Shown here: positions 19,256 to 24,956 of the stretch, piece by piece
How the letters are laid out: the number at the start of each line of letters is the position of its first letter
Numbering within the stretch: the first letter of the stretch is position 1
From: a phage
Sequence record: OZ336096.1
Reading direction: 5' to 3' (one strand)
DNA length: 64,000 nt
Made by a program: the position numbers and the translations under genes
The notes under the pieces: model-generated
What the model saw: the letters and a program-made list of their open reading frames with translations, nothing else
The model's database searches: none
What the model was told of the DNA's origin: nothing

Positions 19256-20428
19256 ATGGCAGTAGGTGAAATTCAAATTAGTGCCTTGCCTCAAGCAGCC
19301 TTACCAATTGAACTTAGTGATATCTTCCATCTTAAGCAGGGTATTGAGGATAAGAGATGTACTCTTGAGCAATTACTTGCTCCACACTCAAGCCTAAGAA
19401 ATAACCCTCATGGTGTTACTAAAACACAAATTGGTTTAGATAATGTTATTAACGCTCTTCAGTTAGTTGCTGCAAATAACTTATCAGATATTGTTAATGT
19501 AGCTGAGGCAAGAGCAAATCTACAGATTATGTCTTCAGAAGAGGTTAATAACCTTGTTCAACAGCATATTAATGATAAGAGTAACCCACACAATACAACT
19601 AAGGCACAGGTAGGGTTGAGTAATGTTCAGAACTGGACAACGTCGAACCTTTATAACGAAGATGCAGATAAGTATGCTACAGCAAGAGCAGTAAATAACT
19701 TGTACAAGGCTGTTCAGGCTTCTTATCCAGTAGGTACTATCCATCTCTCTATGAATCCTGCAAACCCTTCTACATATTTAATTTGTGGAGGAACTTGGGA
19801 GTTAGTTTCAAAGGGTAGAGCGTTGGTTGGTTATGACTCTGATACAAGACCAGCAGGTTCTGTATTTGGTGCTTCAACTGTCACTTTGTCAGTTAATAAT
19901 ATGCCTCAACACTCTCACTCTGTATCTCTTAGTGGTGGTGGTCATACCCATAATGCAACTGTGTCAATTTCAGCTTTTGACTATGGAACTAAGACTACCA
20001 ACTCTTTTGACTATGGAACAAAGGATACTAATACAACGGGTAACCATACGCACAACGTATCAGGTAACACAAGTACAAATGGTACTCACAACCACGATGT
20101 GTACCCTAGAGAAAATGATGGTACTGGTAATGCTGTAGCTGACTCCGATGGTGGTGGTGCAAGAAGAACATCAAGGACATCTAGTGATGGTGCACACTCA
20201 CATAGCTTTAATGTTACATCTGGTGCATCCGGTGACCACAGCCACACAGTCGGTATTGGTGCTCACAGCCACACAGTTGGTATTGGTTCACATACACACA
20301 GTGGTACTGTGACAGTTTCTTCTTCTGAGCATACACATAGTGGTAATACGAATAGTGTTGGTGGAGGTCAGGCAGTTAATATTGAACAGCCATCCTTTGT
20401 ACTGTATGTATGGCAGAGAACAGCTTAA
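19256..20428 (+). CDS. tail fibre protein with His-rich HxH tip
   Basis: 390-aa ORF; C-terminal region rich in HSHS/HTHN/GAHSHTVGIGAHSHTV repeats like T4 gp37/gp12-type metal-binding fibre tips; followed by terminator. Confidence 0.7.
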   Translation: MAVGEIQISALPQAALPIELSDIFHLKQGIEDKRCTLEQLLAPHSSLRNNPHGVTKTQIGLDNVINALQLVAANNLSDIVNVAEARANLQIMSSEEVNNLVQQHINDKSNPHNTTKAQVGLSNVQNWTTSNLYNEDADKYATARAVNNLYKAVQASYPVGTIHLSMNPANPSTYLICGGTWELVSKGRALVGYDSDTRPAGSVFGASTVTLSVNNMPQHSHSVSLSGGGHTHNATVSISAFDYGTKTTNSFDYGTKDTNTTGNHTHNVSGNTSTNGTHNHDVYPRENDGTGNAVADSDGGGARRTSRTSSDGAHSHSFNVTSGASGDHSHTVGIGAHSHTVGIGSHTHSGTVTVSSSEHTHSGNTNSVGGGQAVNIEQPSFVLYVWQRTA

Positions 20429-20437
20429 TTTCTTTAC

Positions 20438-20460
20438 AGGGGCTTGAAAGCCCCTTTTTA
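20438..20460 (+). terminator. rho-independent terminator after first tail-fibre gene
   Basis: Perfect 8-bp stem AGGGGCTT/AAGCCCCT followed by TTTTT. Confidence 0.8.
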
Positions 20461-20474
20461 GAGGAAAATTTATA

Positions 20475-22829
20475 ATGGCAGATTACAAGTTGAGTGAATT
20501 AAACTCAATCGACACAATCCGTTCAGATGACCTTCTTCATGTCAGAGTTAAAAAGAGACCTGAAATGCTGGGTGATGAAGACCGTCGAATGACCTATCAA
20601 GATTTCTTAGCATCTTTTAAACTTGAAAGATTTGTTCAGATTGCTGGTAGTACTATGACAGGTGACTTAGGGATTGTTAAGTTACTTTATGGTGGTAAGG
20701 TAGTATTTAACCCGACAGGCTCTTCTGAGATTAATATTGGGGATGTTTTAAAGACTTTTAAAATTAACGCAAATGGTCTTAAACTAACTATTGCAGATGC
20801 TTCAAGGTCGGCAACTGTTTATCATACTCTTAATAAACCAAGCCCTAATGAACTTGGGATGCGAACTAATGAAGAGAATGATGCAAGATACTCAAGATTA
20901 GCTGTAAATAACACATTTAGAGGTACTCAAGCTATTCTCTCTGACAATGAAGCTCTTATTGCTAAGAATATTACACAAGGAATGCCACTGTATATTCGTG
21001 GTCAAGATGCAGATGGTACTAATAGGTGGTATCTAGGTAATGATAATAGAGGAACAGACAACCTTGTTTTAAAAAACGTTAAATCTGGTGCATACGTAGC
21101 GATTTTAGCTAACCTAATCTCTGTGAACAAATCAATCCAAATCACTGGTCAAGTTAAACCTTCTGACTTCTCTAACTTAGATGCTAGATACTTTACTCAG
21201 ACAGCAGCTAATCAGAGATTTGCTCAGTTAACTGGTAATAACACATTTAGTGGCTCTAACACTTTCACTAATTTTGTTATTAAGAAGAATGCTAATGCTA
21301 TTACTATTCAAAATGTAGATACAACTACGGCTTTGTATATCCAAGCAAGAAAGTCAGATGGAACTAATAAATGGTACATTGGTAATGATGGTCGTGAAGA
21401 CATTGTAAACATCTATAACTATTTAGCAAAAACACAAATCTCACTAGGCGACACCATTACTATGAGTAGAACAGTCCAAATTGGTGGTCAAGTTCAACCT
21501 TCTGATTGGGCTAATATTGACTCTAGATATATTCCAGCAGCTACTTTGAATAATCTTCCTAAACTTAATGTGGCAAATACTTTTACAAATGTGCAGACTA
21601 TTGTATCTAACAATGAAGGTCTAGTATTGAGGAACTTAACACAGGGGCTTCCACAATATATCCGTGGTGTTGATACTGCGAATGTATCTAGGTGGTGGGT
21701 AGGTGTAGGTGGCGCAAACTCTAATGATGTAGCCTTAAACAACAGCTACTCTGGGACTCAAATTACTCTTATGCCTTCAGCGGTTAAGGCTAATAAGAAT
21801 CTAATCATTACTGGTCAAGTTCAACCTTCTGACTTCTCTAACTTAGATGCTAGATACTATACCCAAGCTGCCGCAAACTCAAGATATATGCTTGCAAGCA
21901 TCACTGGTTCGGCTTCTGAAGCAGATGGTGGTGATGGTGTTGCATGGGATGCAAAAACAGGTCTTTATAAGGTTACTAACACCACTGGACAGTCTTCTTC
22001 ACTTGTATATCACATGTTTTTAGGGGCTAGTTCTACACCATCTGCACAATTAAAGTTTTCGTTTAAAAATGGTGGGATGTGGTATAGAACATCAAGAGAT
22101 GCCTATGGCTTCGAAGTTAATTGGTCTAAAGTTTACACGGAAGCACAAAAACCAACCCCTTCAGAGATTGGTGCATACACTAAAGCTGAAACTGACCAGA
22201 AAATTGCAACAGCAATTAGTGACTCTACAGACCTTAACAAAATCTATCCAGTTGGTATTGTAACGTGGTTTAACAGTAATGTTGACCCTAATACAGCACT
22301 TCCTGGGTTGACTTGGACGTACCTGAACAATGGTGTTGGCAGAACTATCAGAATCGCAGCAGCAAACGGTTCAGATGTTGCTACAACTGGTGGTTCAGAT
22401 TCTGTGACGTTAGCTGTTGGTAACTTACCGTCACACACCCATAGTTTCTCTGCTACCACTTCATCTTTTGATTATGGTACGAAGAACACTAATAGCACTG
22501 GTGCGCACACCCACTCAGTTAGTGGTACTGCTGCATCTGCTGGACAACACGCGCACAAGATTTCACAGGGTGATAACGCTAACGTTCCATCAGGTAGAGT
22601 CGCGTCTTCAAACTCTAGACAGACCCATGTTGGTTGGACTGAAAATGATGGTGCACACACTCACTCAGTTAGTGGTACTGCTGCATCTGCTGGTGCTCAC
22701 ACTCACTCTGTAGGTATTGGTGCTCACAGCCACACAGTTAGTGGTAACACTGGTGGTACAGGTTCTGGTTCAGCATTTAGTGTTACTAACCAGTTCTACA
22801 AGTTAATGGCTTGGGTAAGAACTGCTTAA
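20475..22829 (+). CDS. long tail fibre protein
   Basis: 784-aa ORF with three internal ~110-aa repeats (ITGQV(K/Q)PSDFSNLDARY...) and the same C-terminal HxH region and ...W(V/Q)RTA ending as the upstream fibre gene. Confidence 0.75.
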   Translation: MADYKLSELNSIDTIRSDDLLHVRVKKRPEMLGDEDRRMTYQDFLASFKLERFVQIAGSTMTGDLGIVKLLYGGKVVFNPTGSSEINIGDVLKTFKINANGLKLTIADASRSATVYHTLNKPSPNELGMRTNEENDARYSRLAVNNTFRGTQAILSDNEALIAKNITQGMPLYIRGQDADGTNRWYLGNDNRGTDNLVLKNVKSGAYVAILANLISVNKSIQITGQVKPSDFSNLDARYFTQTAANQRFAQLTGNNTFSGSNTFTNFVIKKNANAITIQNVDTTTALYIQARKSDGTNKWYIGNDGREDIVNIYNYLAKTQISLGDTITMSRTVQIGGQVQPSDWANIDSRYIPAATLNNLPKLNVANTFTNVQTIVSNNEGLVLRNLTQGLPQYIRGVDTANVSRWWVGVGGANSNDVALNNSYSGTQITLMPSAVKANKNLIITGQVQPSDFSNLDARYYTQAAANSRYMLASITGSASEADGGDGVAWDAKTGLYKVTNTTGQSSSLVYHMFLGASSTPSAQLKFSFKNGGMWYRTSRDAYGFEVNWSKVYTEAQKPTPSEIGAYTKAETDQKIATAISDSTDLNKIYPVGIVTWFNSNVDPNTALPGLTWTYLNNGVGRTIRIAAANGSDVATTGGSDSVTLAVGNLPSHTHSFSATTSSFDYGTKNTNSTGAHTHSVSGTAASAGQHAHKISQGDNANVPSGRVASSNSRQTHVGWTENDGAHTHSVSGTAASAGAHTHSVGIGAHSHTVSGNTGGTGSGSAFSVTNQFYKLMAWVRTA
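21141..21200 (+). repeat. intragenic direct repeat in long tail-fibre gene (unit 1)
   Basis: ACTGGTCAAGTTAAACCTTCTGACTTCTCTAACTTAGATGCTAGATAC recurs near-identically at ~21810; coordinates approximate. Confidence 0.7.
21807..21866 (+). repeat. intragenic direct repeat in long tail-fibre gene (unit 2)
   Basis: Near-identical to 21141-21200; a more diverged third unit lies near 21481. Confidence 0.7.
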
Positions 22830-22836
22830 TCCCTTA

Positions 22837-22865
22837 TTGACTGATTGTTAAGATGGTGTTAATAT
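22837..22865 (+). promoter_or_regulatory. sigma70-like promoter (TTGACT-17-TAATAT)
   Basis: -35 at 22837-22842, 17-bp spacer, -10 at 22860-22865; upstream of 22908 gene. Confidence 0.5.
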
Positions 22866-22907
22866 TCTTTAGGGTATTCTCACCATCTTGGCTGATGAGG
22901 TGATTAA

Positions 22908-23102
22908 ATGCCTACAATCCTAGCAATTCTTCTAAAAAATCTAGGTAGCTTCTTCTGGAAACTCATTTTATCCCTTCTAAGTGAATACATGATTGAGAAA
23001 GTGTTCTTTAGGCTTGCAAGATACCTTGCGAGTAAGACAGACACACCTATTGATGATGAGTTCGTAGATAACTTAGAAAAAGCTTTTAAGGGGGAGAAAT
23101 AA
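22908..23102 (+). CDS. small hydrophobic protein
   Basis: 64-aa ORF with hydrophobic N-terminus; preceded by TTGACT-17-TAATAT promoter-like element. Confidence 0.35.
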   Translation: MPTILAILLKNLGSFFWKLILSLLSEYMIEKVFFRLARYLASKTDTPIDDEFVDNLEKAFKGEK

Positions 23103-23474
23103 ATGAAGTGGCTAGAGGAGGCTTTTAAAAATAATATTGGTGCAATTGTAGTTGGTATTTTTAGTGTTATTGGGATGTATACCACCATGCAAGTCTCGGA
23201 TGGTAAGCAAGAAGTGTCTATCACAACAAAGTTACAGCAGTTAGATAATTATTCCAAAAGTAATTATTCAGCTATTCGTGATTTACAGTCTGATATGAGG
23301 CTGCTTCAGCTAGGGATGGAGAACCAGAAAGTTCAGTTAGAGAATGTTAAGGGAGAGAACGCAAAACTTACTAAGACTCTTGATAAATTCTCTGATAGTG
23401 TGAACAATCTGGCTCAATCAGTATCAGCCCTCCAAGCTATTACTGAAAAGAACACAAAGAATACTGAAAAGTAA
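23103..23474 (+). CDS. membrane-anchored coiled-coil protein
   Basis: 123-aa ORF with N-terminal hydrophobic helix (IGAIVVGIFSVIGMY) and Q/L/N-rich coiled coil; followed by terminator. Confidence 0.4.
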   Translation: MKWLEEAFKNNIGAIVVGIFSVIGMYTTMQVSDGKQEVSITTKLQQLDNYSKSNYSAIRDLQSDMRLLQLGMENQKVQLENVKGENAKLTKTLDKFSDSVNNLAQSVSALQAITEKNTKNTEK

Positions 23475-23479
23475 AGTTT

Positions 23480-23512
23480 AAGGCTCCTTTTTACGGGAGC
23501 CTTTTTGTTTTA
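23480..23512. terminator. bidirectional rho-independent terminator between convergent blocks
   Basis: AAGGCTCC-loop-GGAGCCTT followed by T-run on + strand, A/T-rich on the other side; lies between + gene ending 23474 and thyA ending 23510. Confidence 0.8.
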
Positions 23513-24409
23513 TTTACCTACTGACAAAGGTGCTTCAATCTTTCCTGCATGTTGGTAATTGTTAATACCACCAATAAAGTCACTTGCAGTGAGATGTTTT
23601 AAGTCACTTAAAGTGTTAAGTGGGATACCAATCTCAAAAGTTGGTGCATGGAACTCTTCATTGTTCATCAGTTCATAAACCTGCTTCATATGATTATGAT
23701 AAATCTGAGTATCTCCAAAGACACCTATCAAGTACCGTGGAGTGTATCCAGTCATCTTACAAAGAACTTCCAGAATAAAACCATAAGATGCAATATTAAA
23801 CGGAAGTCCTAAAAAGGTGTCTACTGAACGCTGATACCATTGTAAGTCAACTTCACCCTCGTTAGTAATATAAATCTGAAACAGAACATGACAAGGTGCT
23901 AGAGCCATTGAGTTTGCTGCAATATCTGCTGCATTCCAAGCATTAACAAGCATGTAACGGTCTGTGATATCACCCTTCATCTTCGTTACTAAGGTTTCTA
24001 ACTGGTCTACAACACAACCATTATGACCTTCAAAGTTTCTCCACTGAACTCCGTAGATTCTTCCACCTGCATCCTCTAACCAATCTTGTTCAGAAGAATA
24101 ATTAGAGCTTAACCAGCGTTTAAAATCATCTGACCAGATAGTCCAGCGGTCTCCGTCATTTTCACCCCAAGTACGGTAACGAAGTTCACCCAGTTTATTC
24201 TCACCATTCAGGAACCATAAAGCTTCCCCGATAACTTGCCGTGTAAACACCTGTTTAGATGTTAAGAGTGGGAAACCAGTTCTCATATCAAAACGAAACT
24301 GTGGTGGAGCAAATGCAGAGATAACATCTCCAGTTCGTGTAGTACGCAGTTCACCAACGGATAAAACATGGTTCAGGATATTTTTGTAACTTGAATCTGC
24401 TTGTGACAT
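23510..24409 (-). CDS. thyA: thymidylate synthase
   Basis: 299-aa translation matches ThyA hallmarks (RTGTG-like RTTRTGD, FPLLTSK, EALWFLNGE); intact, no intron. Confidence 0.9.
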   Translation of the reverse strand: MSQADSSYKNILNHVLSVGELRTTRTGDVISAFAPPQFRFDMRTGFPLLTSKQVFTRQVIGEALWFLNGENKLGELRYRTWGENDGDRWTIWSDDFKRWLSSNYSSEQDWLEDAGGRIYGVQWRNFEGHNGCVVDQLETLVTKMKGDITDRYMLVNAWNAADIAANSMALAPCHVLFQIYITNEGEVDLQWYQRSVDTFLGLPFNIASYGFILEVLCKMTGYTPRYLIGVFGDTQIYHNHMKQVYELMNNEEFHAPTFEIGIPLNTLSDLKHLTASDFIGGINNYQHAGKIEAPLSVGK

Positions 24410-24410
24410 A

Positions 24411-24956
24411 TCAAAAGTGTCCTTTTACTTGTGGAACATAAATTTCAAAGGTTGCTTTACCATCATCTGAGGGTCTTGACTGCACCTTTGCAAATACACG
24501 GCTATCATACAACTTATCGAAGAAGTTTTCAAAAGGTAAATGCACAGTGGCCTCTTCAGTTACTTTATGGAAGACTGTGTGGAACACTACATCAGCATAC
24601 GGTAAAGCATTTACAAGGACACCTACACCACCAATTACAAAGACATCTTCATCAATAGAGCTATCAAGATACTTCAAAAATGCTCCAAAGGATTCTTTAC
24701 TGGCCTTAGCATACATTACATCATCTTTGTCAAAGTCTATACCTAAATATGGTACAGAGTTTGTTAAGACGAGGTTTGTACGTTCTGGTAAAGGTTTACT
24801 ACCCAGAGTCTTAAAAGTTTCATTACCCATGACTACTAAGTTGTCTTTAGTGAGTCTCTTAAACTCTTGCATATCCTGTTTATGTCGAGGCCACGGCATA
24901 CCAGTTGGAGTACCAAACTCCCCATTTTCACCACTTGCAAAGATTAATTTAATCAT
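24411..24956 (-). CDS. folA: dihydrofolate reductase
   Basis: 181-aa translation with DHFR pattern (MIKLIFA...GMPWP...VVMGNETFKTLG...PLPERTNLVLT); adjacent to thyA. Confidence 0.85.
   Translation of the reverse strand: MIKLIFASGENGEFGTPTGMPWPRHKQDMQEFKRLTKDNLVVMGNETFKTLGSKPLPERTNLVLTNSVPYLGIDFDKDDVMYAKASKESFGAFLKYLDSSIDEDVFVIGGVGVLVNALPYADVVFHTVFHKVTEEATVHLPFENFFDKLYDSRVFAKVQSRPSDDGKATFEIYVPQVKGHF

Follow-up and report, generated by a model that had tools for sequence, protein, structure and literature searches.

Two tail fibre genes and their tips

The window analysed here is the whole 64,000-nucleotide (64-kb) stretch of phage DNA in sequence record OZ336096.1, and our subject is a pair of adjacent tail fibre genes on its plus strand, the strand of all features below unless stated otherwise. 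The first gene, at 19256..20428, is an open reading frame (ORF) of 390 amino acids (aa) that encodes the short tail fibre (STF); the second, at 20475..22829, is an ORF of 784 aa that encodes the long tail fibre (LTF). Both had been pointed out in a first-pass annotation made from the letters of the sequence without database searches, and both are present. Region 19256-22829 found its best DNA matches in the phages ULIM8, ULIM3, VpaE1_ev108, ASO1A, and EcoM2 (100% coverage, 91-92% DNA identity); judged by these matches, the source of the window is a Felix O1-like E. coli phage, a Felixounavirus myophage. The STF matched phrog_2097 (tail fibre, E = 1.5e-137), and the LTF matched phrog_4277 (tail fibre) over its full length with 1329 bits, its Pfam matches being gp37_trimer (three times), gp37_C, and Phage_fiber. 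In relatives, both orthologous genes are annotated as tail fibres.

Next to the two genes, on their 5' side, three ORFs of 489, 285, and 100 aa correspond to a Baseplate_J-like wedge 2, wedge 1, and an LTF platform. The 285-aa ORF matched "Wedge protein 1 (gp024)" (E = 8e-184) and the 100-aa ORF matched "LTF platform protein (gp025)" (E = 2.5e-63) in PDB 9NDY, the baseplate structure of phage Bas63 (Escherichia phage JohannRWettstein; Sci Adv 2025, PMC12609058). Because these upstream ORFs match the Bas63 baseplate chains in synteny, the two genes are orthologues of Bas63 gp26 (STF) and gp27 (LTF). Their VpaE1 counterparts are gp74 and gp75. As in a Felixounavirus STF/LTF pair, the genes lie directly 3' of the two wedge genes and the platform gene, these three upstream proteins have the expected sizes, and nucleotide identity extends over the full length.

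We compared the C-terminal parts of both proteins with PDB 2XGF, the tip of T4 gp37 (residues 785-1026), which consists of a collar (domain D10) and a needle with its tip (D11); for the limits of the T4 gp37 domains and the number of its irons we relied on PMC6957217 and PMC12609058. Residues 146-362 of the STF aligned to residues 18-228 of 2XGF (E = 1.3e-28), and residues 648-763 of the LTF aligned to its residues 93-218 (E = 2.5e-14). Dense His-x-His (HxH) motifs in both C termini, which the first-pass annotation had described, were confirmed and counted: nine in the STF (at aa 219, 230, 264, and 278 before the head and at aa 314, 328, 337, 346, and 359 after it) and six in the LTF (aa 654, 678, and 692 before the head and aa 728, 742, and 751 after it), compared with seven in T4 gp37 (883, 915, and 929, then 966, 980, 989, and 998). 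The successive spacings, with the step across the head set between bars, were 32,14|37|14,9,9 in T4, 11,34,14|36|14,9,9,13 in the STF, and 24,14|36|14,9 in the LTF. The motifs of the window align onto the iron-binding HxH motifs of T4, and the spacing around the head matches that of T4; on both needle strands the STF has an extra motif next to the collar (aa 219 and 359), and the LTF is without the last T4 motif. Each protein shows what characterises a gp37-type tip, namely two HxH series in conserved register with a His-free head loop between them and a gp10/gp12-like collar ahead of the needle. The HxH register was strictly kept across 39 aligned homologues and across the aligned phage fibres. 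Matches to the STF tip at E ≤ 1e-5 comprised 401 database proteins, many of them enterobacterial prophage fibres.

The proteins end in VWQRTA (STF) and AWVRTA (LTF), the W(V/Q)RTA termini noted in the first pass, on a return-to-collar strand like that of T4 (…YIVRLA). One string proposed there as a shared motif, GAHSHTVGIGAHSHTV, is literally absent from both; the STF has GDHSHTVGIGAHSHTV and the LTF has GAHTHSVGIGAHSHTV. On the strength of the alignments, the relation of both C termini to the T4 gp37 receptor-binding tip is one of homology, more than the resemblance first proposed. That earlier claim of a T4-type tip therefore stood as far as the likeness is concerned, with HxH falling on HxH, but its His-rich part is, by the same alignments, the shaft of the needle, and the apex lies elsewhere. 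Because the chain doubles back, the receptor-binding apex is predicted to be the His-free loop (aa ~281-313 in the STF and aa ~695-727 in the LTF), with the W(Q/V)RTA end back at the collar.

Laid out along the STF gene, the N-terminal part of the collar domain (aa ~154-218, 19715..19909; Pfam Gp10_C, E = 1.5e-16) aligns to the C-terminal domain of T4 gp10 (gp10 chains, E ~ 1e-6) and to the D10 collar of gp37 in 2XGF. It is followed by the ascending needle strand with the first four HxH motifs (19910..20095), which includes two FDYGTK boxes (19974-20001 and 20004-20031); by the head, the predicted apex (20096..20194); by the descending strand with the remaining five motifs (20195..20338); and by a C-terminal strand back to the collar (…PSFVLYVWQRTA, 20339..20425), which is the counterpart of T4 gp37 D10 residues 1010-1026 and is conserved among the aligned STFs. 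The N-terminal half of the STF holds the motif N-P-H-x-x-T-K-x-Q-[IV]-G-L-x-N-V twice, about 60 aa apart (aa ~46-70 and ~106-130; 19391-19465 and 19571-19645), and this segment alone is matched by several unrelated PHROG tail-protein families.

The LTF is arranged in the same way behind a domain of its own. A gp37_C domain like that of the phage Mu fibre S protein (aa 480-585, 21912..22229) matched Pfam PF12604 (E = 2.7e-20) and PDB 8JU3, the Mu tail fibre S protein (E = 1.6e-20). The collar domain (aa ~588-653, 22236..22433) aligns to the STF collar, its match to Gp10_C being weak (E = 1.4e-4; 23.3 bits against a Pfam curated cut-off of 27 bits). Then come the ascending strand with three HxH motifs (22434..22556) and one FDYGTK box (22465-22492), the head and predicted apex (22557..22655), and the descending strand with the other three motifs (22656..22733).

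On the reading that we favour, each fibre is a homotrimer, and its last ~200-240 residues make up a receptor-binding module of the T4 gp37 type. The chain would run from the gp10/gp12-like collar out along a thin six-stranded beta needle to the head and then back to the collar, where W-x-R-T-A lies. One HxH motif from each of the three chains would bring six imidazoles around one axial metal ion (Fe2+ in T4), and the number of stacked metal sites predicted from the motif counts is nine for the STF and six for the LTF, against seven for T4. These metals would rivet the needle and would not bind the receptor. Host recognition would come from the His-free head of ~33 residues between the two HxH series, its target probably being the core of the lipopolysaccharide, as in other members of the genus. 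In T4, gp37 holds seven iron ions, and H929/H931 are essential (PMC6957217). In the cryo-electron microscopy (cryo-EM) structure of Bas63, gp26 and gp27 each have a collar, an HxH needle, and a T4 gp37-like head (PMC12609058).

The iron of T4 need not be the metal of the window fibres, whose sites could hold another metal, for example Zn2+, or be occupied only in part. Metal identity is not readable from sequence, and the extra STF motifs at aa 219 and 359 adjoin the collar and have no counterpart in T4 gp37 by count. T4 gp12 has an HxH motif for zinc in its collar. Even so, we think such a departure from T4 unlikely, since in the closest solved homologue (2XGF) the seven irons lie on motifs that pair one by one with window motifs in the alignment.

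The first-pass annotation had also named the reading that would undo its own, in which the shared tip is low-complexity sequence without a folded domain. The composition of the His-rich stretch is indeed biased to G/S/T/H, and confidence was low there when the STF (aa 146-390) was modelled as a monomer with AlphaFold2 on a 39-sequence alignment. The mean predicted local distance difference test score (pLDDT) of this model was 63.6 and its predicted template modelling score 0.32, with confident prediction in the collar only (pLDDT 82-88); a Foldseek search of the model against the PDB returned only T4 gp10 C-terminal domains (2FKK/2FL8, E ~ 0.04) and did not retrieve 2XGF. Poor modelling as a monomer is expected, however, for an intertwined trimer. 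A significant full-length alignment to the crystal structure 2XGF, the motif register strictly kept in the 39 homologues and the aligned fibres, and the cryo-EM map of Bas63, which has density for this module (PMC12609058), all oppose the low-complexity reading, which is effectively refuted.

Head cassettes and the boxes that flank them

We aligned the STF and LTF genes of 18 relatives with those of the window; two more, EcoM2 and AYO145A, entered the comparison through identity profiles, which brings the relatives to 20. Protein conservation had its minima at STF aa 275-325 (0.48-0.57) and LTF aa 683-744 (0.43-0.56), and the heads fell into discrete types, at least six for the LTF among the aligned relatives. 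When the window was compared by megablast with phages that carry other heads, homology in the STF stopped at 20046-20048 and resumed at 20231; in the LTF it stopped at 22526-22543 and resumed at 22688-22704. Each head therefore lies within a variable cassette (20049-20230 in the STF and ~22527-22700 in the LTF). On the 5' side the cassette is flanked by an FDYGTK…GxHTH box. A 27-nt segment, described below, lies 10-25 nt inside the resumed homology in both genes and is therefore the 3' flank of a cassette of ~170-180 bp. A comparison of related genomes for tip swapping, which had been proposed with the first pass, thus identified the head as the swappable unit.

Some head types cross the boundaries of genes and of phage families. 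In VpaE1, REP12, and NBEco005, the LTF gene was 93, 92, and 89% identical, respectively, to T4 g37 over 287-288 bp (in VpaE1, LTF nt 2047-2333 with T4 g37 nt 1501-1787); this T4-like block of head and inner needle has exactly the FDYGTK box and the His box as its limits and corresponds to 22455-22738 of the window. The window LTF itself matched T4 g37 in the two flanking boxes only (77% and 82%). In PMBT20, VSe11, and Mushroom, which are Salmonella Felix O1-like phages, the STF and the LTF of one genome share a head type. The two genes of PMBT20 are 84% identical over 267 bp, with 115 bp exact (STF 831-945 with LTF 2070-2184). Such shared heads imply exchange between STF and LTF genes. The window's own two heads are unrelated to each other. 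Its STF cassette was best matched by AYO145A (98.9%), whose LTF head region reached only 47-63% in 60-nt windows, and its LTF cassette was best matched by EcoM2 (99.1%), whose STF cassette was 92.2% identical; the LTF head is of the ULIM8/EcoM2/ASO1A type.

The locus is mosaic on a fine scale as well. Positions 19889-20181 are near-identical to AYO145A, 21880-22283 are identical to ULIM8 at 403 of 404 positions, and 22588-22669 are identical to EcoM2. At 21056-21175 and 21716-21835, identity to ULIM8, EcoM2, and ASO1A, the closest three of five phages profiled, was 63-78%, and the other two were no better. Parts of the window LTF cassette (22527-22700) had DNA matches of 72-88% in tail fibre genes of TH53, EcoM1, ST32, phiEcoM-GJ1, and Bp7. 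These last matches suggest a pool of head cassettes shared with unrelated E. coli phages of ~52-53 kb, beyond the Ounavirinae and the T-evens.

In the LTF, a 58-nt direct repeat brackets the head (22499-22556 and 22649-22706; 86% identity, with 32 nt exact at 22512/22662). It encodes GAHTHSVSGTAASAG (G-A-H-T-H-S-V-S-G-T-A-A-S-A-G) on both needle strands and is also found in ULIM8, VpaE1_ev108, and ASO1A, relatives with the same head. Its copies lie 150 nt apart and in frame, so that slippage across the repeat, or recombination within it, would remove precisely the head.

The identical 27-bp segment of the first-pass annotation was recovered exactly, at 20252..20278 in the STF gene and at 22713..22739 in the LTF gene. 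This 27-mer, GGTATTGGTGCTCACAGCCACACAGTT, has exactly two copies in the window, is in frame in both genes, and encodes GIGAHSHTV, so we refer to it as the His box. No other exact match between STF and LTF is as long, the second having 14 nt; in 200 codon shuffles of the genes, the longest match averaged 11.5 nt and never exceeded 17. For this peptide, at the codon usage of STF and LTF, nine identical codons have a probability of P ~ 1e-3. The Ser codon of the box, AGC, is rare (7% of the Ser codons in STF and LTF), and Ser at this position is AGY in all Felixounavirus copies that have Ser; the single TCA belongs to the LTF of the Mooglevirus Michonne. The AGY Ser and the low probability of identical codons fit common descent or homogenisation, not convergence. 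Nearly all STF and LTF copies follow the consensus GGTATTGGTGCTCAY-AGY-CAY-ACA-GTT, and the T4 sequence is similar; across the compared genomes and T4, the box differs only at wobble positions, and the window copies have the commonest form. LF82P9 is the only one of the 18 relatives that, like the window, has the 27-mer in both genes. The exact run shared by STF and LTF was 27 nt offset by 10 nt in VpaE1, 24 nt in Z31, and 14 nt in ULIM8, the closest relative overall. Seen across these genomes, the 27 shared nucleotides represent one form of a box that is kept in the genus and in T4, and they are not special to this phage.

Gene conversion between STF and LTF clearly occurs in the genus, as the 115 exact bp of PMBT20 attest, and an exact run of 27 nt, compared with 14 nt in the nearest relatives, might be taken for the trace of a recent event in the window phage itself. 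This is very improbable. We rejected a phage-specific recent conversion tract as the source of the 27-mer because identity ends at the box edges (it falls to 76% in 102 nt of flanking DNA, and directly 5' of the box GTC stands against GTA), and because each copy is the genus consensus, for which transfer is not needed. Moreover, LF82P9 has different heads and yet the same 27-mer in both genes.

A second alternative grants the box its conservation and denies it a function at the DNA level. Paralogous needle segments under strong protein constraint for GIGAHSHTV would share their wobble bases by chance, and the heads would be diversified mainly by point mutation or by recombination elsewhere. 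Head types common to lineages and to both fibres, at up to 100% DNA identity, cannot be produced by point mutation, and the cassette boundaries in both genes coincide with the box, as does the end of the T4-derived block; the nine identical codons with the rare AGC, and AGY in every Felixounavirus copy with Ser, likewise argue against a functionless identity. What speaks for it is the wobble-only variation of the box, the commonest form in both window copies, the run of only 14 nt in ULIM8, the use of the same codon at 60% of the aligned identical residues of the STF and LTF tips, and a uniformly high synonymous conservation with no excess detectable at conserved runs. On balance we hold this alternative to be somewhat unlikely.

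We consider it very likely that the two genes encode a short and a long fibre with a T4 gp37-type metal-binding needle that carries a swappable receptor-binding head. Two conserved stretches of needle-coding DNA would provide short homology arms for the head between them: 5' of it the FDYGTK…G-x-H-T-H box, and 3' of it the V-G-I-G-A-H-S-H-T-V box with the 27-mer. Homologous recombination between phages, between STF and LTF, or even with T-evens would swap the ~170-180-bp cassette and thereby change the host range. Natural mosaic breakpoints coincide with the conserved boxes, and the suggestion from the first pass that the 27-mer is a potential site of recombination gained support from the cassette boundaries and from the end of the T4-derived cassette.

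Several points weigh against this reading of the two genes. We infer the identity and occupancy of the metal in the HxH sites from the homology, as we do the receptor and the exchange by recombination at the boxes from the patterns above. The window STF has nine HxH motifs, compared with the seven reported for the Bas63 STF, which is known here by description. The AlphaFold2 monomer had a pLDDT of 50-70 in the needle and below 50 in the head and was silent on the geometry of the histidines, for which structure prediction had been proposed. No homologue of T4 gp38 was found in the 64-kb window by tblastn and phmmer, though T4 gp37 needs gp38; that search covered the window only, with ~24 kb of the genome lying outside it, and gp57A was not searched. 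Dependence on gp38/gp57A is a trait of T4 assembly, not of the fold. At the DNA level, exact STF/LTF identity at the box was only 14-17 nt in most relatives, which is short for efficient homologous recombination, and therefore some swaps may rely on stretches that are longer but match less well. Furthermore, synonymous sites showed much the same conservation from end to end of the genes (pairwise codon identity among orthologues averaged 0.80), and the test gave no evidence of added DNA-level conservation in the His box, which varies in the alignment and was hence outside the scoring.

A further step would be to see in the FDYGTK and GIGAHSHTV boxes a shared docking system, through which a phage may copy heads between its own STF and LTF, as seems to have happened not long ago in PMBT20, and import them from unrelated phages such as T-evens and ~52-kb phages like phiEcoM-GJ1 and ST32. 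We put this forward tentatively, as possible and no better than that. If it holds, the DNA of the boxes would be kept uniform by this traffic, beyond what protein constraint alone requires, and having the same or different specificities on the two fibres would be a rapidly switchable trait.

The LTF shaft and the neighbouring genes

The LTF shaft contains three repeats of ~110 aa each (20895..21890): R1 at 20895-21221, R2 at 21225-21560, and R3 at 21561-21890, or aa 141-249, 251-362, and 363-472. They were recovered with a repeat hidden Markov model (HMM) at independent E values (i-E) from 6e-61 to 9e-53, and Pfam gp37_trimer had three matches in the LTF (E = 6.5e-64). The first-pass annotation had described three such repeats with near-identical DNA at two places; the repeats are real, but the near identity is confined to a 71-nt junction box, whose copies at 21141 and 21807 are 87% identical with 36 nt exact at 21157/21823; over their whole length the repeats reach no more than 48-59% identity as DNA and 31-48% as protein. 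There are three junction boxes (21141-21211, 21480-21550, and 21807-21877), which encode I-T-G-Q-V-x-P-S-D-x-x-N-x-D-x-R-Y. Mosaic breakpoints of the LTF among relatives cluster at these boxes (20905-20917, 21140, 21254-21265, 21485, 21541-21570, 21807-21862, and 22149), which fits the unexpectedly high variability of the LTF shaft reported for the genus. The junction boxes may play the same role for shaft modules as the needle boxes would for heads. The flanking, degenerate domains (aa ~55-137 and 480-585) were not detected by the HMM built from the three clear repeats; they share with the repeats only a terminal KP-x-P-x-E motif, and five repeats in the style of Bas63 were not confirmed by sequence.

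Beyond the LTF stop lies an imperfect inverted repeat (22850-22889), where the annotation of ASO1A has a rho-independent terminator. It is followed by an ORF of 64 aa (22908-23102; phrog_402, function unknown), an ORF of 123 aa (23103-23474; a PHROG of unknown function, annotated as holin in VSe11, nataliec, and Sf15), and a strong terminator-like hairpin (23480-23503). Nothing in the evidence marks the two small ORFs as fibre chaperones; both match PHROGs of unknown function, and relatives carry the second under the annotation holin. Just 3' of this fibre and lysis block, on the minus strand (23510-24956), are genes for thymidylate synthase (299 aa) and dihydrofolate reductase (181 aa), with the same annotation in ULIM8. 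ARAGORN found no tRNA genes in the 64-kb window. VpaE1 is reported to encode 22 tRNAs (PMC4690856), and the tRNA cluster would therefore lie outside the window.

Relation to known systems

Published work on close relatives or on T4 already covers the architecture, the motifs that bind metal, and recombination at conserved sequence motifs; the finding is real but ordinary and opens no new biological question. Its practical side lies in the heads, which are likely determinants of host range in a phage group used for Salmonella and E. coli diagnostics and therapy. Specificity seated in a loop of ~33 residues between two conserved DNA boxes would offer a recipe to engineer or predict host range, by swapping 20049-20230 or 22527-22700.

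Bas63 is the closest of the described systems. It has the same gene order as the window, STF and LTF alike terminate in a collar with an HxH needle and a head, its LTF has six HxH motifs as in the window, and its variability is likewise concentrated in the tips and in the LTF shaft repeats. It differs in the number of STF motifs given above, in having HHxH at LTF 692-695 where the window LTF has QHAH, and in the five beta-helix LTF repeat domains described in the paper, of which the window has three clear repeats and two outer ones that are degenerate in sequence.

With T4 gp37, the window fibres share the collar, the FDYGTK boxes, the HxH register, a head loop of ~36-37 residues, the VGIGAHxHTV box, and the return strand. 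In contrast, the head of T4 is unrelated in sequence to either window head, and its HxH motifs number seven compared with nine and six. The long tail fibre of T4 is made of four proteins, whereas the module in the window sits on shorter, single-protein fibres (390 and 784 aa), and T4 has the chaperone gp38, of which the 64-kb window yielded no homologue.

For VpaE1, homology of the gp74 and gp75 C termini to the T4 adhesin had been reported by BLASTP, at the protein level only and as "distantly related" (Viruses 2015, PMC4690856). Its two genes are an orthologous pair to those of the window, with the same STF head type; its LTF head cassette, however, is T4-like (93% DNA identity over 287 bp), whereas that of the window is of the ULIM8/EcoM2/ASO1A type.

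In the adhesins of T-even phages, recombination at conserved motifs swaps specificity (Tetart 1996, 1998, as cited in PMC3157838). There, as here, short conserved motifs flank hypervariable segments that set specificity, and exchanges fall in or near the motifs. The present case differs in that it concerns the Ounavirinae, that the exchange would take place between two fibre genes of one genome and across families (from T4 to VpaE1), and that the evidence for it is comparative.

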